The translations under genes were made by a program, and so were the position numbers. DNA of 64,000 nt from contig CAZQUR010000004.1 of the NCBI GenBank assembly GCA_964596535.1, positions 33-64,032 on the forward strand. The letters are read 5' to 3'. This DNA is from an uncultured Desulfobacteraceae bacterium. GTDB lineage: Bacteria; Desulfobacterota; Desulfobacteria; Desulfobacterales; UBA2156. The notes below the pieces were generated by a model. It searched no databases. It had not been told where the DNA came from and saw only the letters and a list, made by a program, of their open reading frames with translations. Positions within the stretch are counted from its first letter, which is position 1; every line of letters starts with the position of its first letter. Positions 6,968 through 55,905 of the stretch are shown here, piece by piece.

Positions 6968-7004
6968 GCCATTCCTCCCATAATAAACCACAGGATGTTG
7001 CATT

Positions 7005-7020
7005 GATGTTGCGAAACATC
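7005..7020. promoter_or_regulatory. inverted repeat GATGTT-GCGA-AACATC, candidate activator-binding site
   Basis: Exact 6-bp arms. Preceded by a direct copy of GATGTTGC at 6994-7001. Lies ~180 bp upstream of the sigma-54-type promoter. Confidence 0.3.
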
Positions 7021-7080
7021 GTTTCAATTTATTTTAACTAACTATTTTAATTATAATTTACTCTATCTACACACCTCAAC

Positions 7081-7100
7081 CGTTGCATGGTTTTGCAACG
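7081..7100. promoter_or_regulatory. inverted repeat CGTTGCA-N6-TGCAACG, candidate activator-binding site (UAS)
   Basis: Exact 7-bp arms ~100 bp upstream of the TGGCAC element, a distance typical of bacterial enhancer-binding protein sites. Confidence 0.35.
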
Positions 7101-7186
7101 CTCAAAATCGCCTGAAATAGATTTACTGACCCTCCTTTTCCATTCAACCACCTGTTATCACGGTACATTTTTTCATTTTTTCTTTA

Positions 7187-7201
7187 TGGCACACTCTGTG
7201 C
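7187..7201 (+). promoter_or_regulatory. sigma-54-type promoter (TGGCAC-N5-GTGC)
   Basis: TGGCACACTCTGTGC matches TGGCAC-N5-TTGC with one mismatch. It lies 74 nt upstream of the first gene of the hdr-like operon and 220 nt downstream of a sigma-54 activator gene. Confidence 0.55.
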
Positions 7202-7274
7202 GTTTAAGTGTGCCAAAACAATCCTGATCCTCTCCGAAGTGGGCTGAACCAAACTTGACCAAGCAGAGGTCACT

Positions 7275-7745
7275 TTGAGTCCCAAGCTTGCGGAAAAAAC
7301 GATCATTATCGTTTCTGATGAACTGAATATGCGCATTTTTCTTTGCAATATTTTGGGCAGCTGCGGTTATGCGCCTGTTGATGCCGGGAGCCGTAAGGAG
7401 GGAATGCAAAAAATCAAAACCGAGAAACCGGCGCTCATCATCCTCGATGTCATGATGCCCAAAGAGAGCGGCGTCCAGATGTATCGTGAACTCATGGATG
7501 ACGAAGAGCTGAAATCCATTCCGGTGATTCTCTTGTCGACCATCGATAAAAAAACGTTCTCTTATTACCATAAATTCCGAAGTGCATCCCTGGACAATGA
7601 TTTTTTCAAACCGGGCGCCTATCTGGAAAAACCGTTTGAGGCCAACACCCTCATTTCGCTTGTAAACGGCATGGTCTCATCGGGGGAAGGCCGCATCGCA
7701 GATCCTGTAAGCGAGTCCACTCGAAAAAAGACAGGGTTGTTTTGA
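7275..7745 (+). CDS. single-domain response regulator (CheY-like receiver)
   Basis: TTG 7275 after AGAGG. Motifs IIIVSDELNMR, LIILDVMMPKESG, YLEKPF. No output domain. Confidence 0.8.
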   Translation: MSPKLAEKTIIIVSDELNMRIFLCNILGSCGYAPVDAGSRKEGMQKIKTEKPALIILDVMMPKESGVQMYRELMDDEELKSIPVILLSTIDKKTFSYYHKFRSASLDNDFFKPGAYLEKPFEANTLISLVNGMVSSGEGRIADPVSESTRKKTGLF

Positions 7746-7800
7746 AACGGCATAGGATTTGAATACACTGAACACAAACCGGAAAGAACGGTCTGATGCG

Positions 7801-10089
7801 ATGAATGAAAACATTGATTCCAAATTGTATCAAGAGGTGGCACAATTCGGAGCGATGGATATGGAGATCTGCATGCAGTGCGGCACCTGCAGCGCATCCT
7901 GTCCATTGTCGAGCGGAACGAATCCGTTTCCCCGAAAGATATATCGATATCTCCAACTTGGAATGAGGGACAAGCTCCTCAAGTCGTCCGAACCCTGGCT
8001 GTGCTACTACTGCGGAGAGTGCAACAAGGACTGTCCCAGAGGCGCCGAACCGGCTGAAACCATGATGGCGACGCGACGCTGGTTGACCGCCCAGTACGAC
8101 TGGACAGGACTTGCCAAGAAACTCTATCTCTCCGAAGCATGGGAAATCACCGCGCTGGGTTCTGTTGCGCTTTTCATCATTTTACTTTTCGTTTTCTTCC
8201 ATGGGCCCATCATTACTGATCGCGTTGCAGTCAATACCTTCGCGCCCGTCTTGTGGATTGAAATCGGCGATCTGGTCATGGCCGCAATTTTGTCGACGTT
8301 TCTGCTGTCAAACGCCTTCAGAATGTATCGTTTTATCATGGATGGCACCCAGGTGCCGTTCCGGCTCTATCTCACGCAAGCCAAAGCCTTTGTCCTGCAC
8401 TTTTTAACGCAGAAGCGATGGCGGGAATGCGGAGAAGATCGGAGTCGATGGATCAAGCACCTTCTCCTGGTGACCGGTTATTTGACCATGATGTCCCTGA
8501 TCATCATTTTCATCCGCTGGTTTCAGGTGGATGACGACAGCTGGCATTTTACAAGTCTTTTCGGCTACTATGCCACCGCGGTCCTTTTAATTATTACCGT
8601 AGAGATGTTCGTCAGCCGCCGTAAAAAACAAGAGACGATTCATCGGTACTCCCACCTGTCCGACTGGCTTTTTCTGATCCTGCTGTTTTTCACCACATTG
8701 ACCGGTATCCTGATGCATCTGGTCCGCATCGCCGGATGGCCCATGGGAACCTATGTCATGTATGTGATCCACCTCGCTGTGGCAGTCCCCATGCTGGTCA
8801 TCGAAGTCCCCTTCGGAAAATGGTCTCACCTCTTCTACAGGCCGTTGGCGGTGTTTCTGGCAACCGTCAAGGAGAAGGCGGATAAAGAGTCAAACATCCA
8901 CGTCGAAGATGTAAAAGCCGAGATCGGCGATACCTTCCTGACCTGTCTGCAATGCGGCACCTGCACGAGCGTCTGCCCTGTGAACATGATTTCATCCAAT
9001 AGTCCGCGCCGGATTCTGCGTCAGCTCACAATGGAAACCGGTACAGAGCAGTCCGTCGACCAAGCCGTCTGGAGCTGTGTCACCTGCAACGCCTGCGGGG
9101 CAAGTTGTCCCCGAGGCATACCGATGATCAACGTCATAAAAGCGGTCAGGGAACTCAACGTCGCCGGCGGAATAGTCCCTGAGATTTTCGAGGCGCCGCT
9201 GAACAGCCTGAAAGAAAACGGCAATCCCTGGAACGGACTGCGCGAAAGACGGATGGAATGGGCGGAAGATATCCATATCCCCCCCTTCCGGCCCGAGCAT
9301 GCGTACTGCCTTTTCACGTGCTGTACCACGGCATATGATCCCGCGAATCGCAATGTCGGCAAAGCCCTTCCCCGTCTCCTTGAGTACGCAGGTGTTTCTT
9401 TCGGCACTCTCGGAATCGAAGAAAATTGCTGCGGAGACCAGGCCCACAAGATGGGAGCGCAGGCAATCTTCTCTGATCTGGCCCGGAAAAATACCGAACT
9501 TTTCTTGCGTGCCGACGTCCGAAAGATACTGACCGTTTCACCCCATTGCCTGAACGCCTTTAAAAACCATTACACCGATTTGAGAGGTTTCGTCGGCACC
9601 GAGCACTATTCCGAACTCCTGGACCGGCTCATCGAGGAAGGCCGGTTAAGACCTCTCCTGGAGGTGGCGTCCACCGTCACCTATCATGATCCGTGCTATT
9701 TGGGCCGCCATAACGGCATCTACGAGGCGCCGCGCCGCGTTTTAAAAAGCATTCCGGGCCTGAACCTGATTGAAATGACAAACAATAGAGAATGCAGCCT
9801 GTGCTGCGGAGGCGGCGGCGGCGGGGCGTGGACGGATTGTCCGCCTCGTCATGGCCCCGGTGCAATGAGGATCAAAGAGGCTCTGGAAACCGGCACCGAG
9901 ATGATTGCCACCGCATGCCCCTTTTGCATCCGAATGCTCGATAACGGCATACGGGAACTCGGCGTTGAAAAAGAAATCGCTGTCTGCGACGTGGCCGACT
10001 TGCTGTTACGGTCGGTTGTGGTGAAGGATGAAACTACTGTGATGAGACACATTGATTTGGGCGCAAGCCGGGAGGTCTGTCATGTCTGA
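7801..10089 (+). CDS. fused ferredoxin / multi-span membrane domain / HdrD-like (CCG-domain) Fe-S oxidoreductase
   Basis: ORF open from 7759 (TTG); ATG 7801 preferred. Four 4Fe-4S motifs (CMQCGTCSASCP, CYYCGECNKDCP, CLQCGTCTSVCP, CVTCNACGASCP). Several hydrophobic His-containing segments between them. Two CCG motifs (ENCCGDQ, SLCCGGGGGG). Confidence 0.85.
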   Translation: MNENIDSKLYQEVAQFGAMDMEICMQCGTCSASCPLSSGTNPFPRKIYRYLQLGMRDKLLKSSEPWLCYYCGECNKDCPRGAEPAETMMATRRWLTAQYDWTGLAKKLYLSEAWEITALGSVALFIILLFVFFHGPIITDRVAVNTFAPVLWIEIGDLVMAAILSTFLLSNAFRMYRFIMDGTQVPFRLYLTQAKAFVLHFLTQKRWRECGEDRSRWIKHLLLVTGYLTMMSLIIIFIRWFQVDDDSWHFTSLFGYYATAVLLIITVEMFVSRRKKQETIHRYSHLSDWLFLILLFFTTLTGILMHLVRIAGWPMGTYVMYVIHLAVAVPMLVIEVPFGKWSHLFYRPLAVFLATVKEKADKESNIHVEDVKAEIGDTFLTCLQCGTCTSVCPVNMISSNSPRRILRQLTMETGTEQSVDQAVWSCVTCNACGASCPRGIPMINVIKAVRELNVAGGIVPEIFEAPLNSLKENGNPWNGLRERRMEWAEDIHIPPFRPEHAYCLFTCCTTAYDPANRNVGKALPRLLEYAGVSFGTLGIEENCCGDQAHKMGAQAIFSDLARKNTELFLRADVRKILTVSPHCLNAFKNHYTDLRGFVGTEHYSELLDRLIEEGRLRPLLEVASTVTYHDPCYLGRHNGIYEAPRRVLKSIPGLNLIEMTNNRECSLCCGGGGGGAWTDCPPRHGPGAMRIKEALETGTEMIATACPFCIRMLDNGIRELGVEKEIAVCDVADLLLRSVVVKDETTVMRHIDLGASREVCHV

Positions 10090-13000
10090 GCGCATCGGAT
10101 TTTATATATGCCACTGCGGCATCAATATCGCTTACCGGGTCAGGGTTCAGGAAGTGGCCGAGTATGTGGCGAAATTTCCGAATGTGGCAATCTCAAGGGA
10201 TTACCTTTTCATGTGTTCCGATCCCGGCCAGGAACTCATTGAAAAAGATATCCGGGAGCATCATCTCACCCGCGTTATCGTGGCCTCCTGTTCTCCGCGG
10301 ATGCATGAAAAAACCTTTCGGGCGGCCTGCCAGAGGGCGGGGCTCAACCCTTACCGGACATTTCATATGGTGTGTGTGCGCGAACATGTCTCGTGGGTCA
10401 CCGAAAATGAAGACGAAGCCACCGAAAAGGCCAAAAACCTGGCCAGAGCCGGTCTCTTGCGCGTGGTGCACCAATGCGAATTGACCCCTGCAACATTTTC
10501 GGTATGCACCAATACCCTAATTGTGGGCGGAGGGATCGCCGGCATGCAGGCAGCCCTGGATGTGGCCAAGGCCGGATTCAACGCCTATCTGGTTGAGCGA
10601 CAACCTACAATCGGAGGGCACATGCTCCAATACGACAAGACCTTCCCCACCCTTGACTGCGCGGCGTGTATCGGCACACCCAAAATGGTTTCCGTGGGTC
10701 AGGAGTCCCAGATCCGGTTGCTGACGCATAGCGAAGTGGAAAACGTTAGCGGGTTCATCGGCAACTTCAGGGTCAGCGTTCGGCGAAAAGCCCGTTACGT
10801 CGAAACGAATTGCACCGGATGCGGCGAGTGTGAAAAGGTCTGCCCCATCGATTTTCCCAACCTCTGGGATGTAAACACCAAAACCAGAAAGGCCATTTAC
10901 CGGCCCTTCCCCCAGGCCGTACCGATTACCTACTGCATCGATAAATACGACCGCGCTCCCTGTGTTCAGACCTGCCCGGCCGGAACCAACGCGCAAGGCT
11001 ACGTCGCGCTGATAAAGACGGGTAAATACCGGGAAGCGTTGAGCCTGATCATGGAACGCCTGCCCTTGCCCGGCACCCTGGGTCGCGTGTGCCCGGCACC
11101 GTGTGAAGACGTCTGTCGCAGATCCGAAGTGGATGAGGCCGTCGCCATCCGCGATCTGAAGCGATTTGCGGCCGACCAGGTGGATCTTCTGGAACTGCCG
11201 CTGCCGGATATCCAGGATCGGCCGGAAAAAGTGGCCGTGATCGGATCCGGTCCGGCCGGCCTAACGGTGGCGCATTACTTGCGGCTGAAAGGCTATCAGA
11301 TCACCATTTTTGAAGCGTTGCCGGTGCTGGGAGGCATGCTCCGTGTGGGCATCCCCGACTATCGGCTTCCTCCTGAAATCCTGGATCGCGAAATTCAAAA
11401 CACACTCCGAATGGGAATCCAGGCCCAAACGAATCAGAAGTTCGGGGTCGATTTCAGTCTCGATGACCTGAGAAAGCAGGGTTTCAAAGCCATCTTCTTC
11501 GGAATCGGCGCCCACCACAGTCTGAAGCTGGGTATTAACGGGGAGGAAGAATTCCAGGGCGTGATGGATGCGGTCGATTTTCTCCGGGAAGTCAATCTGG
11601 GCAGTCCTAGGCCTCCCGGCAAACGGGCGGCAATCATCGGCGGAGGCAATGTGGCCGTCGATGCCGCCCGAGCCGCTTTGAGGACCGGCTGTGGAAAGGT
11701 GGATATCGTTTATCGTCGCAGCAGAGAGGAGATGCCCGCCTATCCGGAAGAAATCGAAGGCGCGATCGCCGAGGGCGTGAAAATCCACTTTCTGACAGCC
11801 CCGATCGCGATCCGGGGGGAAAGCGGCAGGGTCGCAGGAGTGGAATGCATCCGAACCGAGTTGGGTCCCCCTGATGACAGCGGGCGACGACGCCCTGTGC
11901 CAGTGGAGGGTTCCGAGTTTGTAATCGAGGCCGATGCGATCATTCCCGCCATCGGGCAGCAACCCGACTTTGACTGGCCTGCCGAAAGACAGATTCTGGA
12001 ACTCACGAAGCGCAAGACCATATCGGTGAATCCGCACACCCTGCAGACCAATTTTCCTGATGTATTCGGAGGCGGCGATGCGGTGAGCGGTCCGGCAACG
12101 GTGATCGAAGCGGTGGCCGCAGGCCGAAAGGCGGCAGAGGCAATCCATTCCTATATCATGGGAGAGGATATGGAAACTTACGCACAAAAAGTCGCCACCC
12201 GGGAACCGATCGGCCAAAACTGGCGAGAATTATTTAAAACCACCCTAAAGAAAGAGAGAGCCCGGCTGCCGCATCTGAATGCATCCGAAAGTGCCGCCTC
12301 CTTTGCGGAGGTGATGTCGGGTTTTGGTGAGATCCAGGCTCGCGAGGAAGCGGCCCGTTGCGTCAATTGCGGCGGATGCTGTGAGTGCAAGCTCTGCGAA
12401 AGCGCATGCGAAGCCAAAGCAATCAATCACTCCATGAAAGATGAGATAGAAGAAATAGAGGTGGGTTCCATCATCGTCGCTACGGGCTTCGATCCCCTTG
12501 ATCCAACACCGATCCGGCAATACGGATACGGTCAGTACGCCAATGTTTTTACCAATCTGGAATTCGAACGCCTGTCGAACGCCACGGGACCCACCAAAGG
12601 AAAACTGCTGAAACGGGATCCGAAGGATCGTTTTAGCTTCACCGAGTCTCCGAAGAGCGTGGCAATCCTCCATTGCATCGGAAGCCGCGATTTAAATTAC
12701 CACGAATACTGTTCGCGCACCTGTTGCATGTATGCGCTTAAATATGCCCACCTCATAAAGGACAAGTGCGGTCATGATACCGAAGTCTATAATTTTTACA
12801 TCGATATGCGATGCTTCGGCAAAGGCTATGAGGAATTCTACAAGCGCGTTCAGAGTGAAGGCGTACGGATGGTTCGCGGTAAAGCCTCCCGGGTGGAAGA
12901 GAAGGACGGTATGCTGATCGTCACCGCAGAGGATACGCTGTCCGACCGGATGCTGAAAATTCCTGTGGAGATGGTGATTCTTTGTACTGCAATGGAAGCG

Positions 13001-13462
13001 CGTCCCGATGCAAACGAAGTGGCGCGCATCTTCGGAATCAGTATTGGAAGTGACGGATTCTTCCAGGAGGAGCATCCCAAACTCGAACCGGTTTCCACTC
13101 CCACCAGCGGCGTTTTTCTCGCCGGGGCCTGCCAGGGGCCTAAAGATATCCCCGACACGGTTGCCCAGGCAAAAGGGGCCGCCGCCGAGGCCCTCGCCCT
13201 TTCCGCCTCCGGAAAGGTATCGGTTTCTCCGATGGTTTCCTCCGTTGATCCTGATATCTGTATCGGCTGTCAGATTTGCATCGACCTGTGCGCATACTCG
13301 GCAATCGAGTTCAATCCCTTGAAAGGAATCAGCGAAGTAAACGAGGCCGTTTGTAAAGGCTGCGGAAGTTGCGCCGGCTACTGCCCGAGCGGCGCCGCGC
13401 AGATTCGTCACTTTACAAGCAAACAGATTTTTGCGGAAATCGACGGGATCTTGGTCGCCTGA
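10082..13462 (+). CDS. hdrA: HdrA-like flavoprotein fused with an internal GltD/NfnB-like NAD(P)H-binding module
   Basis: ATG 10082 overlaps the upstream stop (ATGTCTGA). Motifs GGGIAGMQAALDVA; HdrA signature HCIGSRD-x8-CSRTCCMYALK; CTGCGECEKVCP, CIGCQICIDLC, CKGCGSCAGYCP. GltD-like part at ~10960-12160: GRVCPAPCEDVC, VIGSGPAGLTVAHYL, IIGGGNVAVDAARAA, VFGGGDAVSGPATVIEAVAAGRKAA. Confidence 0.9.
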   Translation: MSERIGFYICHCGINIAYRVRVQEVAEYVAKFPNVAISRDYLFMCSDPGQELIEKDIREHHLTRVIVASCSPRMHEKTFRAACQRAGLNPYRTFHMVCVREHVSWVTENEDEATEKAKNLARAGLLRVVHQCELTPATFSVCTNTLIVGGGIAGMQAALDVAKAGFNAYLVERQPTIGGHMLQYDKTFPTLDCAACIGTPKMVSVGQESQIRLLTHSEVENVSGFIGNFRVSVRRKARYVETNCTGCGECEKVCPIDFPNLWDVNTKTRKAIYRPFPQAVPITYCIDKYDRAPCVQTCPAGTNAQGYVALIKTGKYREALSLIMERLPLPGTLGRVCPAPCEDVCRRSEVDEAVAIRDLKRFAADQVDLLELPLPDIQDRPEKVAVIGSGPAGLTVAHYLRLKGYQITIFEALPVLGGMLRVGIPDYRLPPEILDREIQNTLRMGIQAQTNQKFGVDFSLDDLRKQGFKAIFFGIGAHHSLKLGINGEEEFQGVMDAVDFLREVNLGSPRPPGKRAAIIGGGNVAVDAARAALRTGCGKVDIVYRRSREEMPAYPEEIEGAIAEGVKIHFLTAPIAIRGESGRVAGVECIRTELGPPDDSGRRRPVPVEGSEFVIEADAIIPAIGQQPDFDWPAERQILELTKRKTISVNPHTLQTNFPDVFGGGDAVSGPATVIEAVAAGRKAAEAIHSYIMGEDMETYAQKVATREPIGQNWRELFKTTLKKERARLPHLNASESAASFAEVMSGFGEIQAREEAARCVNCGGCCECKLCESACEAKAINHSMKDEIEEIEVGSIIVATGFDPLDPTPIRQYGYGQYANVFTNLEFERLSNATGPTKGKLLKRDPKDRFSFTESPKSVAILHCIGSRDLNYHEYCSRTCCMYALKYAHLIKDKCGHDTEVYNFYIDMRCFGKGYEEFYKRVQSEGVRMVRGKASRVEEKDGMLIVTAEDTLSDRMLKIPVEMVILCTAMEARPDANEVARIFGISIGSDGFFQEEHPKLEPVSTPTSGVFLAGACQGPKDIPDTVAQAKGAAAEALALSASGKVSVSPMVSSVDPDICIGCQICIDLCAYSAIEFNPLKGISEVNEAVCKGCGSCAGYCPSGAAQIRHFTSKQIFAEIDGILVA

Positions 13463-13540
13463 CCGGCGAAGGCGAGAGATCTTCTTGAATCCTGAAGTAA
13501 AACGAATTCCCTGGAGCATGTAACAGAAAGGAGTTGAAAG

Positions 13541-13963
13541 ATGAGTGAGTTTGAACCGACAATTGTGGCTTTTTTTTGCAACTGGTGCACTTACACAGCC
13601 GCGGACTTAGCCGGCACTTCTCGTCTGAACTATCCCCACAACATTAGAATCATCCGGGTCATGTGCACCGGCATGGTCGATACCCAATATGTCATTAAAG
13701 CGTTTTTGGAAGGAGCGGACGGCGTGCTGGTGAGTGGATGCAATCCCGGGGATTGTCATTACATCAACGGCAATTATAAGGCCCGGAGACGGATCAAGCT
13801 TCTCAAAGAGATTCTACCCCAATTCGGTTTTGATCAAGAACGGCTTCGATTAACCTGGATCGGAGCCAGCGATGGGGTTCACCTGGCTGAGGTCATTCGA
13901 ACCTTTGTATCACAAATCAAAGCCCTGGGACCGAGCCAGACAAAACTTAAAATGGCGATTTAG
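13541..13963 (+). CDS. mvhD: MvhD-like (methyl-viologen-reducing hydrogenase delta subunit family) Fe-S protein
   Basis: ATG after AAAGGAG. Motifs FFCNWCTYTAADLAG, RVMCTGMV, GADGVLVSGCNPGDCHY. Confidence 0.85.
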   Translation: MSEFEPTIVAFFCNWCTYTAADLAGTSRLNYPHNIRIIRVMCTGMVDTQYVIKAFLEGADGVLVSGCNPGDCHYINGNYKARRRIKLLKEILPQFGFDQERLRLTWIGASDGVHLAEVIRTFVSQIKALGPSQTKLKMAI

Positions 13964-14048
13964 AAAATATAGATATCGGATTTGCCAAAATGGTTTTCAC
14001 GCACATAATCCCCATGCCGAATTTAACACCATTTCTCCGGAGGCAGTT

Positions 14049-15191
14049 ATGACCACCATGGCCAAAATCGACCTGAAGGAACAGAATCCTTTGGAAGCCT
14101 TGCAGCAGTTTTTTGCAGGCATTCTCAAACTGAAAGATGTCACGTCTATCCTGGTCCCCCAGCGGCTTCCAGCCCGAAACATGATTATGCCGACCCTGGT
14201 AACCGATGCCGCTCTCCTGGAAGGCGTTGATCCCCTTGCCCCGGCTTTCCCGATGAATGCCGCAAGAATCGCCTCCCGATTGACCCGGAAACCGATGGGT
14301 TCGAAAGTGGCGGCGGTGTTGCGCCCCTGCGAGATCCGGGCGTTCATCGAGCTGGTCAAACTGAATCAGGCTAAAAGGGAGGAGATTTTTCTCATCAGCA
14401 CGGATTGCCTGGGTGCATTTCCGAACAAAGAATACTTCATGTTTGCAGACCGGAATGGAGGAGAAGGAACCCTTGACTTTTATAAAACCATGCTGGGGGG
14501 AAACACCGGTGAAATGGAAGGGTATCCGCTGGCTCCGGCCTGCAAGGCATGCGAACATCCGATTTCCGAAAACGCGGATATTCAAATCGGTTTTTACGGC
14601 ATCAAGCCCGGCGAATCAATTCTGATCAAGTCTCAATCCGAAGCAGGAGATCGTATTTTACAGCAGATGAATCTCTCCACAACCACGGAACCAGCCGGCC
14701 GCCGGACCGCCATCGACACCCTCATCTCCCAGCGCATCCGTTACCGAGACGAAATGTTCGTCAAGACTCATGAGGCCATTGATAGCCTGGACAAGATGGA
14801 AACGTATTTCTCCAATTGCGTCAATTGCTACAACTGCCGGGTGGCTTGCCCGGTCTGTTATTGCAGGGAATGCGTCTTTGTCACAGACGTGTTCAACCAT
14901 GAACCTTCCCAGTATCTTCATTGGGCCGCCCGAAAAGGGATGATCAAAATGCCAACGGATACTCTCTTTTATCATCTCACTCGGCTGGCCCATATGAGTA
15001 CGGCGTGCGTGGGCTGCGGCCAATGTTCCAACGCCTGCCCCAATGACATCCCTGTCATGGAGATCTTCCGCACGGTGGCCCAACACACCCAGCAGGCCTT
15101 TGACTATGAAGCCGGGAAGCACCTCGAGGAAAAACCGCCTTTATCCGTTTTTCATGAAGATGAGTTTCAAGAAGTTGTGGGTATTTCATAA
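14049..15191 (+). CDS. FrhB/FdhB-family flavin-binding Fe-S protein with C-terminal 2x[4Fe-4S]
   Basis: ATG 14049 after GGAGG (ORF open from 13872). Motifs LRPCEIRAFIELV, ISTDCLGAF, CKACEHPISENADIQIGFYG (FrhB_FdhB_C-like); CVNCYNCRVACPVC and CVGCGQCSNACPND. Confidence 0.65.
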   Translation: MTTMAKIDLKEQNPLEALQQFFAGILKLKDVTSILVPQRLPARNMIMPTLVTDAALLEGVDPLAPAFPMNAARIASRLTRKPMGSKVAAVLRPCEIRAFIELVKLNQAKREEIFLISTDCLGAFPNKEYFMFADRNGGEGTLDFYKTMLGGNTGEMEGYPLAPACKACEHPISENADIQIGFYGIKPGESILIKSQSEAGDRILQQMNLSTTTEPAGRRTAIDTLISQRIRYRDEMFVKTHEAIDSLDKMETYFSNCVNCYNCRVACPVCYCRECVFVTDVFNHEPSQYLHWAARKGMIKMPTDTLFYHLTRLAHMSTACVGCGQCSNACPNDIPVMEIFRTVAQHTQQAFDYEAGKHLEEKPPLSVFHEDEFQEVVGIS

Positions 15192-15217
15192 AGCCAAAAC
15201 ACAAGGGAGATGCAACG

Positions 15218-16537
15218 ATGCCGCAAGAAGCCATTCAATTAACCCGGGAAAGACAAAGTCCCTTCATGGACAAAGTGGAAGCGCTCCTTCCGGAAGGAGG
15301 AAATCTCAATCTATGTCTGACCTGCGGGGCTTGCGTCTCAGGATGTCCGGCAAGCGGCCTGGAAGAAATGGACCCCCGGAAATTTTTGCGCATGGCTGCG
15401 TTGGGTTTGGATGACGAAATCCTGAAAACGGATTGGGTCTGGATGTGTTCCATGTGCCAGCGCTGCATCTATGTCTGTCCGATGAAGATCGACATCCCCC
15501 AGTTAGTCTATCAGGCCCGGGCGTCCTGGCCCAGAGAAACCCGCCCCAAAGGAATTCTGGGCTCCTGCGATATGGCGTTGAAAAACGATAGCTGCAGCGC
15601 CATGGGCGCATCGCCGGAGGACTTTGACTTTGTTGTCAACGACTTGCTGGAGGAATACCGGGAGGCCCAGCCCGAATTCGCCGAAATGGCGGCGCCCATC
15701 GATAAGGAAGGAGCCGAATTTTTCCTGAATCAGAATTCCCGGGAACCGGTAACCGAACCCGACGAATTGATCCCTCTTTGGAAAATTCTCCATGTCGTCG
15801 GGGCGGATTGGACCTATGGTTCCAAAGGATGGGGCGGTGAAAACTATTGCATGTTCCTGGCAGACGACTCGTCTTGGGAGCACATTGTCCGAACAGCGGC
15901 AAATCAGGCGGACGCTTTGAGGTGTAAAGTCTTTCTCAATACGGAGTGAGGGCACGTCACCTTCTCGGTCCTGGCAGGACTGAAAAAATTCAAGGTTCCG
16001 CATAATTTTATCGTCAAGAATATCTATGAATACTACGCCAAATGGATCCGCGAGGGAAAGCTGAAGGTCAACTCGGATTGGAACAAGGATCTGAAGATAA
16101 AATTTACGGTGCAGGATCCCTGCCAAATCGTCCGTAAAAGCTATGGAGATCCCATCGCCGAAGACCTTCGACTCGTGGTGAAATCCATCGTGGGAGAAGA
16201 AAATTTTATCGAAATGGAACCGAATCGATCCAACAATTACTGCTGCGGCGGCGGCGGCGGATTCCTTCAATCGGGATATAAGGACGCCCGTCTCGAGTAC
16301 GGGCGCATTAAGGACCGCCAAATCCAGGAAACCGGTGCGACATATTGCATTGCGGCGTGTCACAATTGTCACGCCCAGATTCACGAACTCAGCGAGCACT
16401 ATGGAGGAGGGTATCACGTAGTTCACCTGTGGACGCTCATTTGTCTTTCCCTGGGGATTTTGGGACCCAATGAACGGGAGTATCTTGGAGAAGACCTCAA
16501 GGAAGTCCTGGTCTTCCACCCGGAATCCGCTCATTAG
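15218..16537 (+). CDS. HdrC/HdrB-like fusion (4Fe-4S + CCG domains) with in-frame UGA read as selenocysteine at codon 244
   Basis: ORFs 15218..15949 and 16109..16537 share one frame. The only stop between them is TGA 15947-15949, and 15950-16108 is open and protein-like. Motifs CLTCGACVSGCP, CSMCQRCIYVCP, NTE-U-GH, DPCQIV...NYCCGGGGG...CIAACHNCH. Confidence 0.7.
15959..15996 (+). ncRNA. candidate bacterial SECIS stem-loop (mRNA element)
   Basis: Starts 10 nt after the UGA. Lower stem ACCUU(15959-63)/AAGGU(15992-96); upper stem GGUCCU(15967-72)/AGGACU(15976-81); G-rich apical loop GGC. Folded by eye only. Confidence 0.45.
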
Positions 16538-16617
16538 AAAGGGACAGCCGCACACCAGCATGCTCTGTGAGACAGAATATCGGAATAAGCCATACGTATT
16601 GAGTGAAAGGACGCACC

Positions 16618-19600
16618 ATGAACAGAAAAATCGGCACGGCATTAGTGGTCGGGGCCGGAATTGGCGGTATGCGGACCGCCATGGATCTGGCGGAATTCGG
16701 ATATGGAGTGACCCTGATCGACCGGGCTCCCCACCTGGGAGGCATTCTGAGCCAGCTCGATTATCAGTTTCCCACCGATCGTTGCGGCATGTGCAAAATG
16801 CTCCCGCTCATCGATCGGGACGTTTCGTCCCAATATTGCCTGCGGAAGGGTTTTACCCATGAAAATATCCACGTCTTTCTTTCCACCGAACTCATTTCCG
16901 TGGAAGGGGAGCCGGGGCGTTTCGGTGTCACTCTCAAACGAAAACAGAACTGGGTGGACCCCGCCCTCTGCGTTGGTTGCGGTCTTTGCACAGAAGTGTG
17001 CCCGGTGGAAGTTCCGGACACTTTCAACGCCGGACTGTCCAAAAGAAAAGCCATCTACCTTCCTGTTCCCCATGAGATACCGAACCCGTATATCATCGAC
17101 ATTGCCGCATGCAACCGGTGCGGAGAATGTGTGAAGGCCTGCCCGACCCATGCCATACGATTATCGGAACAGGAACGTAAAAAATTCCGTATCCTGGTGG
17201 TAGATGATGAGCTGATCGTCCGGGATTCGCTCAAGGAACTCCTTGAAAATGAAGGTTTTTTCGTCAACATGGCGGCCTCCGGAGCAGAAGCGCTGGATCG
17301 TTTGTCCGAAGCGCCATATCATCTGATGCTCACCGATATCAAGATGCCGGAGATGGACGGTGTTGAGCTTTTACAAAAAGTGCGGGAAACTTTTCCGGAT
17401 ACGACCGTGATCATGATGACGGCGTATGCAACCGTTGAAACCGCTGTGGAAGCGATGAAAATCGGAGCCGTCGACTATCTCATCAAACCATTTGAACCCG
17501 AAACCCTCATTCCCATGATTCTTAAAAAATACGAAGATTTTGAAACCGCCGGCGCCAGCCGGATAGAGGTGGGTGCGATCGTTCTCAGCGGCGGCACGGC
17601 CTACTTCGATCCCCGGAGCGGGAAAAACACCCTAGGTTACGGGATTTATCCGAATGTGATGACGAACATCGAATTCGAGAGAATTCTCAGCGGCTGCGGA
17701 CCCACCCAGGGCCGGCTCATCCGATTCGACGGCAAGCCGATCCGAAAAGCTGCATGGCTCCAGTGCATCGGCTCCCGGGACATCCAAATCGACGCCGACT
17801 TCTGCTCCAATGTCTGCTGCATGTTCGCCATCAAGGAAGCCCTGGTCGCCCAGAGACGGGCCGATGGGGATTTCGAAGCATCCATACTTTACATGGACAT
17901 GCGGACTTTCGGCAAATCTTTTCAGCGGTACCGGGACACTGCAGAGCAGGAGCACGGCGTTCGTTTTATCCGGGGACGCGTGCATTCCGTCACCCAGGAT
18001 CGCGGAACCGGAGACCTCTTGATCCGTTATGCGGATCCAGGCGGTCAAATGGTTGAAGTCGCCCAGGATGCGGTGATCCTTTCCGTCGGCCAGAGGCCGG
18101 CCACCGGATCGCAGGCGCTGGCGGACCTGCTTGGAATCCAGCTTAATCCATGGGGCTTCCATGAAAATCCTCCCTTCTCCGTCACTCGAACCTCCCGGGA
18201 AGGAATCTTTGTGGGGGGTTCGTTTTCCGGTCTTAAGGACATTTCGGATTCGGTGATCCACGCCTCTGCCGCAGCTCTCTCCGCTTCCCGAATTCTGCAT
18301 GCCTCAGGAGGCAGCTTGACACCTCAACCGTCGCCAAGCGTCGAACTCCGGGATGTAACCCGGGAATCCCCATCCCTTCTCATGACCCTTTGCACCTGCA
18401 ACGGCGCCATCCTTGACGAAACCGTCAAAGCGGCCCTAAAGACGCATTTTACATCCGATCCGGATGTGGCTCAAGTGGAGTATGCGGAACAAATCTGCAC
18501 CACTGAAGGATGGACGGGATTGTCTAAGCTCGCAAAAACTCGCCGGCCGAACCGGATTCTCATCGGAGCCTGTCTTTTCAACGGATACACCGGAAAACTG
18601 AGGGAACTGAGCATGGAAACAGGGCTCTCTTCCGCCTTAATGGAAATGGTCGATATCGGGTCTCCGGTATTTTGCGTCAAAGATGCTCCGAAAGAAAAGT
18701 ATGAGGCGACCCTGGAACGGATCCTCAAAATCGGCATCACCAGACTCAAAAATGTCGATCCCGCCCCCAAGGCGCCCACCCGTATCCAGCAGAGGGCGCT
18801 GGTGGTAGGCGGCGGCATCGCGGGCATGAGCGCAGCCCTTGCCGTCGCCGATCATGGTTATCCCGTGGATATTGTGGAACAGGACACCCAGCTCGGTGGA
18901 AATCTTTCCTGGATCAAGAAAACCATCGAAGGCCACGATACCCAGTCGCTGCTGGAAGAAACGCTTTCCCGTGTGGAAAAGCATCCGAATATCCGCGTGC
19001 ATACCGAATCCCATGTCTTGGAGGCCTTCGGACAGGCGGGACATTTTATGACGAATATTCAAAACGGCGCAAAGGAAATCAAAACCATCACGCACGGCGT
19101 TGCGATCTTGGCCACGGGTGGCATTGAAGCCCGGACCCAATCTTATGGCTACGGTACATCCGAAACCATCGTGACGCAGAAGGAGTTGGAACTCAATCTT
19201 CACGAAAACCGGATAGACGCTGCGAAGTTAAAATCAGTGGTGATGATTCAATGCGTCGACTCGAGGGAAGAACCCCGCAACTATTGCAGCCGCATCTGCT
19301 GTGTGTCGGCGCTGAAAAATGCGCTTTATTTGAAGGAAAAGAACCCGACTTGTAAAATCACCATTCTCTATCGGGATCTGATGACCTATGGATTCTCTGA
19401 AACATATTATACCCGGGCTCGACGCGCCGATATCCTCTTTATGCAGTATGATCTGGAAAACAAACCCGCCGTCGTCCAGATGGATGACGACCTCCTGGTC
19501 AAAGCGCATGAACCGATTCTCGATCGCCAAATTCAAATAGGGGCGGATCTGGTCGTTCTGGCGACCGGCATTGTGCCGACACTCCCGGTGACTCTCGCTC

Positions 19601-20034
19601 AGGTTTTCGGAGCCTCAATCGATCCGGATGGCTTTTTCCTGGAAGCGGAATCGAAATGGCGGCCGGTGGATTCCCTCAAAGACGGGGTCTTTGCCTGCGG
19701 TATCGCTCATTCGCCCCGTTCCATCACCGAATCCATCGCAACGGCGGAGGCGGCCGCCCAGCGCTCCCTTCGGATCCTGAATCAGGAAAGCATCCCGACG
19801 AGCAGGGTGACCGCCATCGTCCGTCACAGCCTCTGTAGCCTCTGCGAGCGATGTATCGAAGCCTGCCCATACGGCGCCAGGACATTCAATTTGGATCAAA
19901 CCCAGGTGCAGGTCAATTCCCTGATGTGCCAGGGTTGCGGGACGTGTGTTTCGACTTGTCCGAACGGCGCTTCGGTGTTGGAGGGATTCCGAAAACAACA
20001 GATGTTCGATGTCATCGATGCGGCGCTCATATGA
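16618..20034 (+). CDS. tandem HdrA-like flavoprotein with an embedded CheY-type receiver domain
   Basis: ATG 16618 after AAGGA. Module 1: VVGAGIGGMRTAMDLA, CVGCGLCTEVCP, CNRCGECVKACP. Receiver at 17182-17545: RILVVDDELIVRD, LMLTDIKMPEMDG, MMTAYA, DYLIKPF. Then CIGSRD-x8-CSNVCCMFAIK. Module 2 from ~18787: VVGGGIAGMSAALAVA, CVDSRE-x6-CSRICCVSALK, CSLCERCIEACP, CQGCGTCVSTCP. Confidence 0.9.
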   Translation: MNRKIGTALVVGAGIGGMRTAMDLAEFGYGVTLIDRAPHLGGILSQLDYQFPTDRCGMCKMLPLIDRDVSSQYCLRKGFTHENIHVFLSTELISVEGEPGRFGVTLKRKQNWVDPALCVGCGLCTEVCPVEVPDTFNAGLSKRKAIYLPVPHEIPNPYIIDIAACNRCGECVKACPTHAIRLSEQERKKFRILVVDDELIVRDSLKELLENEGFFVNMAASGAEALDRLSEAPYHLMLTDIKMPEMDGVELLQKVRETFPDTTVIMMTAYATVETAVEAMKIGAVDYLIKPFEPETLIPMILKKYEDFETAGASRIEVGAIVLSGGTAYFDPRSGKNTLGYGIYPNVMTNIEFERILSGCGPTQGRLIRFDGKPIRKAAWLQCIGSRDIQIDADFCSNVCCMFAIKEALVAQRRADGDFEASILYMDMRTFGKSFQRYRDTAEQEHGVRFIRGRVHSVTQDRGTGDLLIRYADPGGQMVEVAQDAVILSVGQRPATGSQALADLLGIQLNPWGFHENPPFSVTRTSREGIFVGGSFSGLKDISDSVIHASAAALSASRILHASGGSLTPQPSPSVELRDVTRESPSLLMTLCTCNGAILDETVKAALKTHFTSDPDVAQVEYAEQICTTEGWTGLSKLAKTRRPNRILIGACLFNGYTGKLRELSMETGLSSALMEMVDIGSPVFCVKDAPKEKYEATLERILKIGITRLKNVDPAPKAPTRIQQRALVVGGGIAGMSAALAVADHGYPVDIVEQDTQLGGNLSWIKKTIEGHDTQSLLEETLSRVEKHPNIRVHTESHVLEAFGQAGHFMTNIQNGAKEIKTITHGVAILATGGIEARTQSYGYGTSETIVTQKELELNLHENRIDAAKLKSVVMIQCVDSREEPRNYCSRICCVSALKNALYLKEKNPTCKITILYRDLMTYGFSETYYTRARRADILFMQYDLENKPAVVQMDDDLLVKAHEPILDRQIQIGADLVVLATGIVPTLPVTLAQVFGASIDPDGFFLEAESKWRPVDSLKDGVFACGIAHSPRSITESIATAEAAAQRSLRILNQESIPTSRVTAIVRHSLCSLCERCIEACPYGARTFNLDQTQVQVNSLMCQGCGTCVSTCPNGASVLEGFRKQQMFDVIDAALI

Positions 20035-20269: not shown

Positions 20270-22588
20270 ATGTTGACATGGCTGAAAAACATCCGTCACA
20301 GACTCGCGGCAAAACTGATCGTCATGATGGGAATAATTCTTGTCGGCAGCTTCAGCGTCTGGGCTCATTATAATCTCAACTTTCAGAAAACCAAATTGAT
20401 GGCTTACACCATAGAAAGCACGGACCGCCTTACCAATACCATCAAACTCGGCGCCCATTATTCCATGATGTCCAACAGCCGTGAAGATATCAATCAGATT
20501 ATCAAAAACATTTCAACGCAACCCGAATTCGAGCAAATCCGCATCTACAACAAGGTCGGGCAAATTAAATTTTCCAACAATTCCTCAGAGATCAACCAAA
20601 CCACCAACATCCGGAATGAGGCCTGCATCATTTGCCATCAGACGGATCCGCCGAGAACTCAGGTCGGTCTTTCCGAAAGAATACGGGTGCTCGATTCAGA
20701 CAAGGGCTATCGCATCCTCGGAATCATCAGCCCCATCTATAACGAGCCCGCTTGTGCTAGTACCGATTGTCACTTTCATCCGGAGGAAAAAAAGATTTTG
20801 GGCGCTCTGGATGTCGTGATTTCCCTGGAAGCACTCGATCAAGAAATTGTCCGGGCTGAAAAGAACTTCGTCGTCTTTTCGGTAGTCGTCTTCACCGTGA
20901 CGTCCACCATAATTTTTCTCTTTGTTCTAAAGTTCGTCAACCAACCCATTAAAAAGATGATCAACGGCGCCAGGCGAGTCGCAAAAGGGGAATATTCCAG
21001 AGCCATTGAGATCGAACAAATCGATGAAATGAGTGAACTTGCCAACGCCTTTAATCATATGTGCAAAGAAATCCTCAAGCACGAAACCGAACTGAAAGCA
21101 AAGCAACGGGAATATCAAAATCTTTTCGAGTCGGTTCCATGTTTGATCACGGTGCAGGATCGGAATTTTACGCTCCTGAATTACAACCGTCAATTTTCCG
21201 ACATGTTCAACCCCACTCCCGGGGACTATTGTTTTCGTGCGTACAAGGGGCGCAACCAAAAATGCGATCCCTGCCCGGTGGAGGAGACATTCACCGATGG
21301 ACAATCGCACCACACCGAAGAAAGCGGCCCGGGAAAGGACGGAACCGTTCGATCCTGGATCGTCAGGACCTCCCCGATCGTTAACGAGAATGGCGAAATC
21401 GTCGCGGCCATGGAGATTTCCCTGGATATTACCGAGAGAAAAAAGCTCGAGTTCGATCTCTTAAAATCCGAAGAAAAGTACCACGCCATCTTCAACAACA
21501 TCCCGAACCCGGTTTTTGTATTGGACGCGGACAATTACGAAATCCTCGATAGCAATAAAAGCGTGAATACCGTTTATGGCTATGAAACGCATGAACTGCA
21601 GAATCTCCCCTTCTTAATTCTCTTTCCGGAAAAAGAAAGGATACATTATTCCTTCAAGCTGGCGGCGTCCCACATCCTCGATCGTGTCAAACAGATCCAT
21701 AAAAATGGAAAGGTCCTGTATGTCAACATTCGCATCTCCCCCTCCGAGATTTTAGAGAAAAAGGTGCTGCTGGTGACGACCAGCGATATCACCAAGCGTC
21801 TTGAAACCGAGCAGCAACTCATACAGGCAGGAAAAATGGCCACTCTCGGAGAAATGGCAACCGGCATCGCCCATGAACTCAACCAGCCCTTATCGGTCAT
21901 CAAGACCGTGAGCAGTTTTTTCATCGACAAGCTCCGGAGGAAAGAACCCATCGAGGAAAAAACCCTTTCTACCATGCTGACCAAGGTGGACAGCAATGTG
22001 GACCGAGCCACCCGGATCATCAATCACATGCGACAGTTCGCAAGAAAATCCGAAGTGGAGTTGGAAAGGATTCGGATCAACGATGTCATCCAAAACGCGT
22101 TGGAAATTTTCAGCCAGCAGTTGAAGGTCAAAGGCATCGAAATCGTACAACGGCTCGATCCCCAATTGCCTTCCATCCTGGCAGATCCCGGAAGGCTTGA
22201 ACAAGTGATCATCAATTTATTGGTCAATGCGCGGGACGCCATTGAAGAAAAATGGAACAGCACAGGTCGCCGGCAGGAAAAAGAGAGTATCGAACTGATC
22301 ACGCGGTACGAAAAAGAGCAAGCGGTCCTGGAAATCATAGACAGCGGGATGGGAATCCCTGAGGCCTTTTTGGAAAAGATCTTCGAACCCTTTTTTACCA
22401 CCAAGGAAGTGGGAAAAGGCACGGGTCTCGGCCTGTCCATCAGTTACGGGATCGTCGCGGAGTGCGGCGGCAAAATCGAGGCAAAAAACGTGAACGGCAA
22501 CGGCGCCTGCTTTATCCTGCGGTTTCCTGTTACAAAGGTCGAAAAATCGGATCCGCGTTTCAAGTATCTTCCACGTGTCGGCGGATAA
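20270..22588 (+). CDS. sensor histidine kinase: periplasmic domain with c-type-heme-like motifs, HAMP, two PAS, HisKA/HATPase
   Basis: ATG 20270 (GTG 20264 also in frame). TM-flanked ~180-aa domain with CIICH (20624-20638) and CASTDCH (20753-20773). H-box [38 protein letters not shown]. Confidence 0.9.
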
Positions 22589-22600
22589 AGGGCTTTATCG

Positions 22601-23746
22601 GTGGCTCAAACAGAAAAAAGCCAAACCATTTTACTCGTCGACGATGAAGAGGATATCCGGGACGTCCTGAACCTGGCCCTTTCCAGTTCCGGATACGATG
22701 TCCTAACCGCGAAGAACGGCGTCGAGGCCCTCCAGATTTTTACACAAACGCATCCACCCATCGTGTTGACGGATATCAAGATGCCCGGGATCATCGACGG
22801 TATCGAGCTGCTTCGGCGCATCAAAAATGAGAATCCGGATACCGAGGTCGTCATGATCACGGGTCATGGTGATATGGATCTGGCCATCCAAAGCTTGAAA
22901 AACGAGGCCACCGATTTCATCACCAAGCCCATTAACGTGGAAGCCCTCAAGGCGTCTTTGCAGCGGGTGGAAGAAAAAATCCTCATGAAGAGAAAGCTTC
23001 TGGAATACACCCAAAAGTTGGAAGCTTTGGTCCTGGAAAAGACGGAACTTCGGGATCGACTATCCTCCTTGGGCCTGATGATCGGCTCCATCTCCCACGC
23101 GATGAAAGGTCTGTTGACGAACCTGGATGCCGGTCTTTACCTTCTTGATTCTGGGATTTCCAAAAACCGTACGGAGCGGTTGAAGGAGGGGGTGGAAACG
23201 GTCCGGCAGACCGCCGGGCGCATTAAAAAACTGGTTCTGGATATCCTTTTTTATGCCAAAGAAAGGGAACTCAAAATCCGGTCCACGGCTATCGAACCCT
23301 TTGCGAATGAAGTGGCGGACATCATCGAAAACAAGATCAAGGAAAAACCAATTGAACTGGTCCGCAGTTTTAAGGCCGCCCCAAAGTCGTGGATGATCGA
23401 CCCCGATTTTCTCCGCACGGCCCTGATCAACGTCCTCGAAAATGCCGTAGATGCCTGTTGTGAGGACCCGGAAAAACCTTCCCATGAAATCCGATTTACC
23501 GTTGAGGAAAAAGACGGAGAACTCCTCTTCAATATTCTCGACGACGGGCCGGGTATGGACAGCGGCACCCTGGAAAAGGCGTTCAATTTATTTTTCTCCA
23601 CAAAAGGCCCCAAAGGGACGGGCTTCGGTCTTTTCATTACGGATAACATCATCAAACAGCACGGGGGTCGGATTCAGGCCCATTCTTCAAAAGGGAAAGG
23701 CACCCAGCTCTGCATCCGGATTCCTTTTCCGGAATCGAATCCCTGA
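22601..23746 (+). CDS. hybrid receiver-histidine kinase
   Basis: GTG 22601. Receiver ILLVDDEEDIRD, VLTDIKMPG, FITKPI. Kinase IGSISHAMKGLL, NVLENAVDA, DDGPGMD, GTGFGLF. Confidence 0.85.
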   Translation: MAQTEKSQTILLVDDEEDIRDVLNLALSSSGYDVLTAKNGVEALQIFTQTHPPIVLTDIKMPGIIDGIELLRRIKNENPDTEVVMITGHGDMDLAIQSLKNEATDFITKPINVEALKASLQRVEEKILMKRKLLEYTQKLEALVLEKTELRDRLSSLGLMIGSISHAMKGLLTNLDAGLYLLDSGISKNRTERLKEGVETVRQTAGRIKKLVLDILFYAKERELKIRSTAIEPFANEVADIIENKIKEKPIELVRSFKAAPKSWMIDPDFLRTALINVLENAVDACCEDPEKPSHEIRFTVEEKDGELLFNILDDGPGMDSGTLEKAFNLFFSTKGPKGTGFGLFITDNIIKQHGGRIQAHSSKGKGTQLCIRIPFPESNP

Positions 23747-38250: not shown

Positions 38251-38409
38251 CCCTCCTTTTTCATCCTCTCCACATCCCGAATGACGGAGTCCCTTTCCCC
38301 TGATTGCAGTTCATTCTTGACACTTGTCTTGACTTTTGACAAAGTATTCCAAAGGTTATTAATGTACCCGTTACGACAAATGAAAACAAGCGTAAAGGAG
38401 TTTCTCCGA

Positions 38410-38985: not shown

Positions 38986-39039
38986 GGATTCTTTCATTCA
39001 ATCACCTTTCCCTTGCCCATTCGATCAAAGGCATCGGTC

Positions 39040-39777: not shown

Positions 39778-39813
39778 CCCATCGGGCTTGCACGGCCCGG
39801 TAGTAAGGGACCC

Positions 39814-52318: not shown

Positions 52319-52347
52319 ATTCCCTTTTGTAACAGACGTGATCCTTC

Positions 52348-55886: not shown

Positions 55887-55905
55887 AACCTTGCATCCGA
55901 TACCC

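Follow-up and report, generated by a model that had tools for sequence, protein, structure and literature searches.

The window analyzed here, a 64,000-nucleotide (nt) stretch of contig CAZQUR010000004.1 from an uncultured Desulfobacteraceae bacterium (assembly GCA_964596535.1), contains a seven-gene operon at positions 7275 to 20034 in which HdrA-type flavoproteins are combined with a membrane subunit. We lean toward the view that this operon encodes a membrane-anchored form of a widespread Desulfobacterota redox system, performing NAD(P)H-linked electron bifurcation to ferredoxin and menaquinone and gated by two-component signaling. The core of this system, HdrL-MvhD-FdhB-like-HdrA, is conserved over Desulfobacterales and Syntrophobacterales. 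What is new in the window is the exchange of soluble HdrCB for a QmoC::HdrD membrane fusion. This is narrower than the novelty claimed in the original prediction, made from the sequence of the window: the arrangement does differ from Flx-Hdr, Qmo, Dsr, and Mvh-Hdr, but its core has already been named (PMC2702500; PMC5947623) and is widespread.

Electron transfer among NAD(P)H, ferredoxin, the quinone pool, and DsrC in complete-oxidizing sulfate reducers and syntrophs is a long-standing gap, and many HdrA/HdrL paralogs have been known since 2009. A shared core that differs only in its terminal module, HdrCB or QmoC::HdrD, offers a natural comparison that could assign the high-potential acceptor, and hosts of both forms have been cultured or enriched (Desulfobacterium sp. 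N47; Desulfonema and Syntrophobacter).

Gene content and conservation of the operon

All seven genes, here termed G1 to G7, lie on the forward strand. G1 (7275 to 7745) encodes a stand-alone receiver domain protein of the DivK/DVU0259-like type (Pfam PF00072, E = 1e-13; NCBIfam NF045717, E = 3e-21, under the model cutoff). G2 (7801 to 10089) encodes a membrane fusion of a QmoC-like half and an EtfD/EMO-type HdrD half, identified by Pfam, NCBIfam, and a structure match, and G3 (10082 to 13462) encodes HdrL, an HdrA with an inserted NfnB-like FAD/NAD(P)H module, identified by Pfam, NCBIfam, and structure alignment. The products of G4 (13541 to 13963) and G5 (14049 to 15191) are an MvhD-type [2Fe-2S] electron transfer protein (PF02662, E = 4e-54, with matches to VhuD and the HdrA2 C terminus) and an FdhB/FrhB-like iron-sulfur protein (PF04432 and dicluster domains). 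G6 (15218 to 16537), with an in-frame TGA, codes for a soluble HdrD-like (HdrC/HdrB-like) selenoprotein resembling TmcB, HmcF, and DsrK, and G7 (16618 to 20034) for a tandem HdrA with two HdrA-like halves and a receiver in the first. Pfam and NCBIfam scans and translation of the open reading frames (ORFs) thus bear out the gene list and domain content of the original prediction, including its joining of a membrane HdrD-type module with soluble bifurcation-type modules.

The short spacing and single overlap that had been described were also recovered, with gaps of 26 to 85 nt (in order from G1 to G7: 55, -8, 78, 85, 26, and 80 nt) and an exact 8-nt overlap of G2 and G3, ATGTCTGA, at 10082 to 10089. 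Shine-Dalgarno-like purine runs precede every start from G1 to G7. No terminator-like site was found on the forward strand in any operon gap, and scans for sigma-70 promoters and intrinsic terminators were at chance level. The window sequence matched four microbial-mat DNA metagenomes only; RNA runs were looked for and none was found. From its sequence organization, G1 to G7 is inferred to be a single co-transcribed unit.

In a scan of one genome per species, 568 species genomes were found to encode a relative of the FdhB-like G5. Orthologous loci from 80 different species were fetched and labeled with L-numbers. In all 80, the genes run HdrL-MvhD-FdhB-like-(HdrD)-HdrA::REC, most often preceded by a receiver gene and followed by two kinase genes; a G1-type receiver gene lies 5' of HdrL in at least 20 of the 36 loci covered on that side. 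Because the same order recurs in every one of these loci, the arrangement is not due to chance, which it far exceeds. The fetched loci include Desulfobacterium sp. N47, Desulfonema magnum, D. limicola, and Syntrophobacterales and Desulfatiglandales metagenome-assembled genomes (MAGs). The closest relatives of the window operon, at 65 to 95% protein identity, are found in two Desulfobacterales MAGs.

HdrL was described earlier as an HdrA/glutamate synthase fusion followed by mvhD, and locus VIII of Desulfobacterium autotrophicum HRM2 was reported to comprise hdrL, hdrA4, fdhB, hdrD2, hdrC, and hdrB together with regulators (PMC2702500). In Syntrophobacter fumaroxidans, the "HdrABC/HdrL" proteins (Sfum_0819-0824) were abundant in proteomics only with sulfate and were proposed to confurcate electrons and reduce DsrC (PMC5947623). 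The window shares with this cluster and with locus VIII (hdrL-mvhD-fdhB-hdrD2-hdrA4-hdrCB) the HdrL, MvhD, and FdhB-like proteins, an optional HdrD, and a large HdrA encoded by a separate gene (G7), all in the same order, and HdrABC/HdrL-type loci of Syntrophobacterales and Desulfobacterales are direct homologs of the window operon (58 to 95% identity). In contrast to HdrABC/HdrL, soluble hdrC and hdrB are missing from the window, where the QmoC::HdrD membrane fusion is encoded 5' of hdrL instead. Neither of these two papers discusses an embedded receiver, sigma-54 control, or the selenocysteine (Sec) and selenocysteine insertion sequence (SECIS) of the HdrD ortholog, and no other relevant paper was found. 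The literature searched likewise contains no biochemical characterization of a complex with this gene order; in this respect the original prediction, which an earlier assignment to a characterized complex would have contradicted, stands.

The membrane subunit G2

Translated from the ATG at 7801, G2 has 762 amino acids. An alternative TTG at 7759 is possible; the ATG is adopted because the orthologs are 762 amino acids long. Two CX2CX2CX3C motifs at the N terminus are followed by six predicted transmembrane helices, a second dicluster, and two CCG domains. The QmoC-like half (7801 to 8853) thereby comprises two predicted [4Fe-4S] clusters and six helices with invariant His residues, and the EtfD/EMO-type HdrD half (8872 to 10086) comprises two further [4Fe-4S] clusters and two CCG/non-cubane-cluster domains. 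Residues 6 to 351 match positions 2 to 358 of the 360 positions of the qmoC model (E = 5e-71) with 240 bits, below the curated cutoff of 300, and by this match the N-terminal half appears to be specifically QmoC-like. Residues 399 to 741 match the Mycobacterium smegmatis EtfD structure 9OJN (E = 4e-57), onto which the cluster ligands could be mapped, and the matches of the HdrD half to HdrC (E = 1e-14) and HdrB (E = 5e-5) are far weaker than that to EtfD. About 120 full-length relatives of G2 share at least 67% identity, and its Cys and His residues are conserved across 18 orthologs.

On 9OJN, C508 of G2 corresponds to EtfD C503, C543/C544 to C538/T539, S580 to C581, H582 to H583, and C583 to C584; C632, C668, C669, C706, and C709 correspond to C637, C672, C673, C709, and C712. 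H582, invariant in the 18 orthologs, thus aligns with the His that closes cluster D2 in EtfD, where this cluster is non-catalytic. An HdrB-type catalytic site was taken to have two complete CX31-39CCX35-36CXXC motifs, a bridging Cys, and no closing His. G2 departs from this pattern: the motif is complete in its second domain, but in its first the leading Cys of CXXC is replaced by S580, and H582 is present in addition. It does have the one-chain build of EMO and EtfD, with a NarI-like membrane domain predicted to bind heme b, an HdrC-like dicluster, and two non-cubane-cluster domains. In EtfD and in the EMO of S. aciditrophicus, the HdrC-like cubane and HdrB-like non-cubane clusters are a wire rather than a catalytic site, and this wire leads from a cytoplasmic flavoprotein via heme b to (methyl)menaquinone (PMC13083937; bioRxiv 10.64898/2026.08.18.745454). 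Invariant His residues of G2 lie near one membrane face (H220, H281, and H343) and near the other (H249, H306, and H324), a distribution that fits predicted b-type hemes.

Relative to EMO/EtfD (9OJN), G2 shares the HdrC-like dicluster, the two CCG domains, and the predicted heme-b membrane domain, and most ligands align, including the closing His. It differs in having CC where EtfD has CT, in an additional N-terminal QmoC-type ferredoxin domain, and in six rather than five transmembrane helices with both ends predicted to be cytoplasmic; the even number of helices would place both soluble arms in the cytoplasm. Moreover, its neighbors are HdrL and HdrA and not EtfAB, and etfAB was found neither in the window nor in the syntenic loci. 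As in QmoABC, a QmoC-like subunit with iron-sulfur clusters and a predicted heme-b membrane domain is paired with HdrA-like flavoproteins. In contrast to QmoABC, the QmoC-like half scores under the qmoC cutoff, G2 carries an additional HdrD module, and the flavoprotein partners are not QmoA and QmoB but HdrL and a tandem REC-HdrA. No apr genes (aprBA) were detected in the 64-kb window, and its flavoproteins best match HdrA models.

We also considered whether the HdrD part of G2 could derive from the hdrCB of the operon itself by fusion to a membrane domain. This was rejected, as this part is much closer to EtfD and queries with hdrC and hdrB of sister loci miss G2; the same two observations argue for a non-orthologous displacement. 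The alignments thus identify G2 as a hybrid of QmoC and EMO/HdrDE and as a non-orthologous replacement of hdrCB.

Exchange of G2 and hdrCB

In loci without G2, hdrC (190 amino acids) and hdrB (about 290 amino acids), with full CX..CCG..CXXC motifs, directly follow G7. Among the 31 loci covered on both sides, 12 have G2 and no hdrCB, 17 have hdrCB and no G2, and two have neither; no locus has both. In the window, the 235-nt gap between G7 and the downstream kinase gene contains no hdrC or hdrB. In most lineages, the core is thus followed by canonical soluble hdrC-hdrB, and in one clade G2 is located before hdrL instead. A neighbor-joining tree of concatenated HdrL C-terminal part, MvhD, and FdhB-like sequences groups all G2 loci, including the window and Desulfobacterium sp. 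N47, in this single clade, which points to a single replacement event that has since been retained in many species. Consequently, the Fisher p value of 6e-7 for the mutual exclusivity of G2 and hdrCB is not independent evidence of functional equivalence. A distant G2 relative on a 1.1-Mb contig is located in the same operon, as are the other G2 relatives checked.

One locus, L010 (3115 to 6235), falls in the G2 clade by HdrL identity (83%), but its only G2-like match is weak and partial (42%), and hdrCB is missing. A degraded or divergent membrane subunit or an assembly problem may be the reason.

HdrL, MvhD, and the FdhB-like protein

G3 combines HdrA with an NAD(P)H-binding module of the GltD/NfnB type and is thus an HdrL. 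Residues 4 to 288 align to HdrA 13 to 298 and residues 766 to 1123 to HdrA 301 to 652 (8rvu_a, E = 3e-204). The insert of about 475 amino acids (10946 to 12376) lies in HdrA's inserted ferredoxin domain, where it separates the two cluster motifs. It had been called GltD-like in the original prediction. Its reading as a pyridine nucleotide module holds, but its closest relative is NfnB (T. maritima 4ylf_B, E = 4e-88) rather than GltD (6s6s_G, E = 3e-58). As in NfnAB, this is a full NfnB-type module with Fer4_20 dicluster and FAD/NAD(P)H domains. Unlike NfnB, it is not a free subunit but is integrated into the inserted ferredoxin domain of HdrA, and the locus has no NfnA partner. Extra sequence of about 1.5 to 3 kb, absent from the window, was seen between HdrL and MvhD or inside HdrL in L047 (Desulfonema magnum; 6443 to 9268) and L042 (2565 to 8077), and may represent further module insertions in HdrL.

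As in the HdrABC/HdrL cluster, MvhD (G4) and the FdhB-like iron-sulfur protein (G5) are encoded directly after HdrL. G5, which has 3785 homologs at E < 1e-10 and about 67% identity across Desulfobacterales, aligns collinearly with FdhB of the methanogen Fdh-MvhD-Hdr complexes (9t1s_M, 8rvu_E, and 7bkb_E; E = 1e-29 to 1e-24) and is probably a flavoprotein. The original prediction counted two pyridine nucleotide entry points. The NfnB-like insert, with its NAD(P)-binding signatures, qualifies as one, but nothing indicates pyridine nucleotide binding by G5. With the methanogen FdhAB-MvhD-HdrABC and MvhAGD-HdrABC complexes (5ODC, 7BKB, 8RVU), the window shares the HdrA fold with all cluster-binding Cys residues, MvhD, and an FdhB-like subunit, and the FdhB-MvhD-HdrA wiring is probably the same. 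In contrast to these complexes, the window lacks a hydrogenase, FdhA, and CoM-S-S-CoB chemistry, HdrBC is replaced by the membrane module, and HdrA is present twice, once with the NfnB insert and once in tandem with a receiver insert. Flx NADH dehydrogenase subunits and the [NiFe] hydrogenase subunits MvhA and MvhG were not detected among the proteins scanned in the region.

The collinearity of G5 with FdhB of Fdh-Hdr supercomplexes also raises the possibility that the electron donor is formate or H2. In analogy to methanogen FdhAB-MvhD-HdrABC, the catalytic subunit of a formate dehydrogenase or hydrogenase with its gene elsewhere would then dock onto the orphan G5, and the NfnB-like module would be an acceptor making NADPH. 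Other hdrA/hdrL loci of D. autotrophicum have fdhB followed by fdhA (PMC2702500), and H2 or formate was left open by the authors of the S. fumaroxidans study (PMC5947623). However, neither fdhA nor a hydrogenase gene was found in the window or next to G5 in the 80 syntenic loci, and the fact that the arrangement is so tightly conserved without FdhA argues that G5 does not need it. We therefore regard formate or H2 as an improbable donor.

A receiver domain embedded in HdrA

Alignment of G7 to HdrA (5odc_A) yields four stretches. Residues 8 to 184 correspond to HdrA 146 to 312 and residues 316 to 507 to HdrA 319 to 510. Between them, at HdrA position ~313 to 318, lies a receiver domain (residues 190 to 305; 17185 to 17532). 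In the second half, residues 583 to 741 correspond to HdrA 2 to 160 and residues 959 to 1134 to HdrA 469 to 647. The first half thus lacks the N-terminal domain and the C-terminal ferredoxin, both of which are present in the second half, and the second half lacks the inserted ferredoxin domain. Once the receiver is removed, HdrA models align to the first half without interruption. The original prediction of a tandem HdrA-REC was right about the presence of the receiver but not about its place, as it is located inside the first HdrA half and not appended. An interpretation of G7 as fused QmoA-QmoB was unsupported, both halves matching only HdrA-type models.

The receiver directly follows HdrA's inserted ferredoxin domain. 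Given the position of the NfnB-like insert in G3, both HdrA-type proteins of the operon bear an extra module at this same domain. The receiver insert was found in 61 of 61 loci. It has the full residue set of a phosphorylatable REC domain (acidic pair, phospho-acceptor Asp, Thr/Ser, and Lys), and D196, D197, D240, T268, and K290 are 100% conserved in 120 cluster representatives, in which the overall conservation of the receiver equals that of the catalytic parts. G7 has 2978 homologs, of which the top 120 are all full length and all contain PF00072. In databases, these relatives are labeled only "response regulator" or "FAD-dependent oxidoreductase," and our literature search found no paper discussing a receiver domain in HdrA. 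Its universal presence suggests a mode of bifurcation control not described in the literature searched.

Promoter and regulatory genes

A putative sigma-54-type promoter with a GG-N10-GC core, TGGCACactctGTGC, was read from the sequence at 7187 to 7202 (forward strand), about 85 nt 5' of G1. A GG-N10-GC motif occurs 46 to 216 nt 5' of G1 in 21 of 23 orthologous loci, compared with a background of 0.1 per 410 nt. A search with the strict sigma-54 consensus (TGGCAC-N5-TTGC-like), allowing one mismatch, found nothing; the window promoter, which has two mismatches to this consensus, was recognized by its core and conservation. Immediately upstream, at 5228 to 6967 on the forward strand, is a gene for a sigma-54-dependent activator (bacterial enhancer-binding protein) with two PAS domains, an AAA+ sigma-54 interaction domain (PF00158, E = 9e-72), and a Fis-type helix-turn-helix. 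It is syntenic in loci L001-L005, L009, L020, L026, L040, L045, and L084. The conserved core and the adjacent activator gene together mark a sigma-54-dependent operon. The promoter is enclosed by a 12-nt inverted repeat at 7184 to 7218 (TTATGGCACACT / AGTGTGCCAAAA, 11-nt spacer), with TGGCAC also on the opposite strand; this repeat may act as an operator or form a hairpin in the 5' leader.

Three kinase genes, assigned by Pfam, flank the operon on the forward strand. HK1 (3573 to 5177), upstream, is a hybrid sensor kinase with REC-PAS-HisKA-HATPase architecture, and kinases of this type are found upstream in many orthologous loci. HK2 (20270 to 22588) is a membrane sensor kinase with a periplasmic domain, HAMP, two PAS domains, HisKA, and HATPase. 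It lies 3' of G7 in 31 of the 40 loci covered there. Its periplasmic domain, between two transmembrane helices, contains CIICH (20624 to 20638) and CASTDCH (20753 to 20773) and weakly matches PF21563, the heme-c sensor of Geobacter class 40H chemoreceptors; a CXXCH heme-c motif is present in 28 of 37 HK2 orthologs. HK3 (22601 to 23746), a REC-histidine kinase hybrid, is syntenic with HK2 in most loci.

The promoter also bears on whether the seven genes act together. They might be mere neighbors, with G1 and the receiver of G7 as ordinary signaling proteins with transcriptional roles and G2 as an independent EMO-like quinone reductase for another flavoprotein. We consider this very unlikely. 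G2 and G6 are indeed optional across lineages, and EMO and EtfD normally serve ETF. However, a single conserved sigma-54 promoter precedes G1, the gaps lack terminator-like sites on the forward strand, and G2 and G3 overlap by 8 nt. Furthermore, the G2 relatives examined are always in this operon, with no etfAB nearby, and the receiver of G7 is embedded in a catalytic fold without a DNA-binding output domain.

The selenoprotein G6

The TGA codon of G6 (15947 to 15949) lies within the motif LNTE-U-GH, kept in all orthologs recovered; the frame is open on both sides, and the read-through translation is continuous. A predicted SECIS hairpin with an 8-bp stem and an invariant GGC loop (15965 to 15983, forward strand) begins 19 nt downstream of the U in UGA. 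In a set of 21 distinct sequences, pair 26:30 of this hairpin is U-A in 15 and G-C in five, a compensatory change for which one side costs a Leu-to-Arg replacement and the other is synonymous, and pair 21:35 alternates between G-U and A-U. The conserved in-frame UGA, coding continuity, and downstream hairpin characteristic of bacterial selenoproteins are thus all present, and on these sequence features the selenocysteine is genuine. G6 matches models of TmcB (E = 2e-50), HmcF (E = 7e-49), and DsrK (E = 7e-33). It was found in 20 of 68 loci, scattered over both the G2 and the hdrCB clades.

Proposed electron flow

HdrA and NfnB are two of the four known classes of bifurcating flavoproteins (PMC5861303). 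In the membrane-anchored system that we favor, NAD(P)H would be oxidized at the NfnB-like flavin of HdrL, and the HdrA-type flavins would split the electron pairs, with the low-potential electron passing to ferredoxin. The high-potential electron would travel through the cubane and non-cubane clusters and the b-type heme(s) of G2 to menaquinone, and in the soluble form through HdrCB to a disulfide such as that of DsrC. Flow through the HdrA-type flavins might be bifurcation or confurcation, in either direction. MvhD and the FdhB-like protein would be inter-subunit wires, as are FdhB-MvhD-HdrA in the methanogen complexes, and G6 could provide an optional thiol/disulfide outlet. FixABCX, which reduces ferredoxin or flavodoxin together with quinone at the expense of NADH, offers a functional likeness only: it is associated with the membrane and bifurcates electrons, with quinone accepting those of high potential, but its families are ETF-based and not homologous.

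Several observations weigh against this interpretation. The QmoC match of G2 is below the curated cutoff, and the mutual exclusivity of G2 and hdrCB goes back to one replacement in evolution. In its first CCG domain, G2 has preserved the CC pair C543/C544, lost in EtfD, and judging from these residues this domain may hold a catalytic Hdr-like non-cubane cluster. That the operon also encodes a selenoprotein of the DsrK/TmcB-like type speaks for continued use of a thiol/disulfide substrate. The donor, too, could be other than NAD(P)H.

Alternatively, the membrane variant may still be a disulfide reductase acting on DsrC or DsrC-trisulfide, with the CCG domains of G2, the Sec-containing G6, or both as catalytic sites. 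The QmoC-like heme domain would then exchange electrons with menaquinol, as in DsrMK, HmeCD, and HdrDE, and through the complex, sulfite reduction would be coupled to the quinone pool and to NAD(P)H/ferredoxin. CCG is kept in both G2 domains, G6 is closest to TmcB, HmcF, and DsrK with a conserved Sec typical of a redox-active nucleophile, HdrDE shares its overall build with EMO, and the soluble relative is sulfate-induced and was proposed to reduce DsrC (PMC5947623). On the other hand, the EtfD-type His of G2 closes the proximal cluster, and the first CXXC is short of one Cys (S580). As 48 of 68 loci, many of the G2 type among them, do not have G6, it cannot be the obligatory acceptor site, and the window contains no dsrC or other dsr genes. 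A disulfide reductase is therefore a credible but distinctly less probable function than transfer to menaquinone.

Within the NAD(P)H-to-menaquinone model, the receiver of G7 would have a regulatory role. Located at the hinge of the mobile inserted ferredoxin domain, it would switch or tune the low-potential (ferredoxin) branch upon phosphorylation, in response to the flanking kinases, one of which (HK2) has a periplasmic heme-c-type sensor. The full proposal, an HdrA-class bifurcating complex hard-wired to menaquinone via a QmoC/EMO hybrid, with its low-potential branch phospho-switched under a periplasmic heme-c redox sensor kinase, is tentative, and we hold it with clear reserve. If true, it would represent direct two-component control of catalysis by an energy-conserving enzyme, beyond transcription.

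Other features of the window

Upstream of the operon and its regulators, ORFs resembling enoyl-CoA hydratase (2 to 763), HMG-CoA lyase (781 to 1947), and a GntR-type regulator (2070 to 2831) were called by eye; they are unrelated to the operon. Downstream, on the reverse strand, an ORF at 26229 to 28919 encodes an 896-amino-acid protein with a PPDK N-terminal ATP-grasp domain and a PEP-utilizing mobile domain but no obvious C-terminal PEP/pyruvate domain. It is adjoined by a gene for a dCache sensor kinase (24173 to 25834, reverse strand). From about 37000 to 55900, the window contains a co-oriented biosynthetic cluster with three beta-ketoacyl synthase genes and genes for a short-chain reductase, FAD amine oxidase-like and LolA-like proteins, an MMPL/RND-type transporter, and two B12-binding proteins, one of them a radical SAM protein. 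This cluster resembles aryl-polyene or unusual-lipid clusters.

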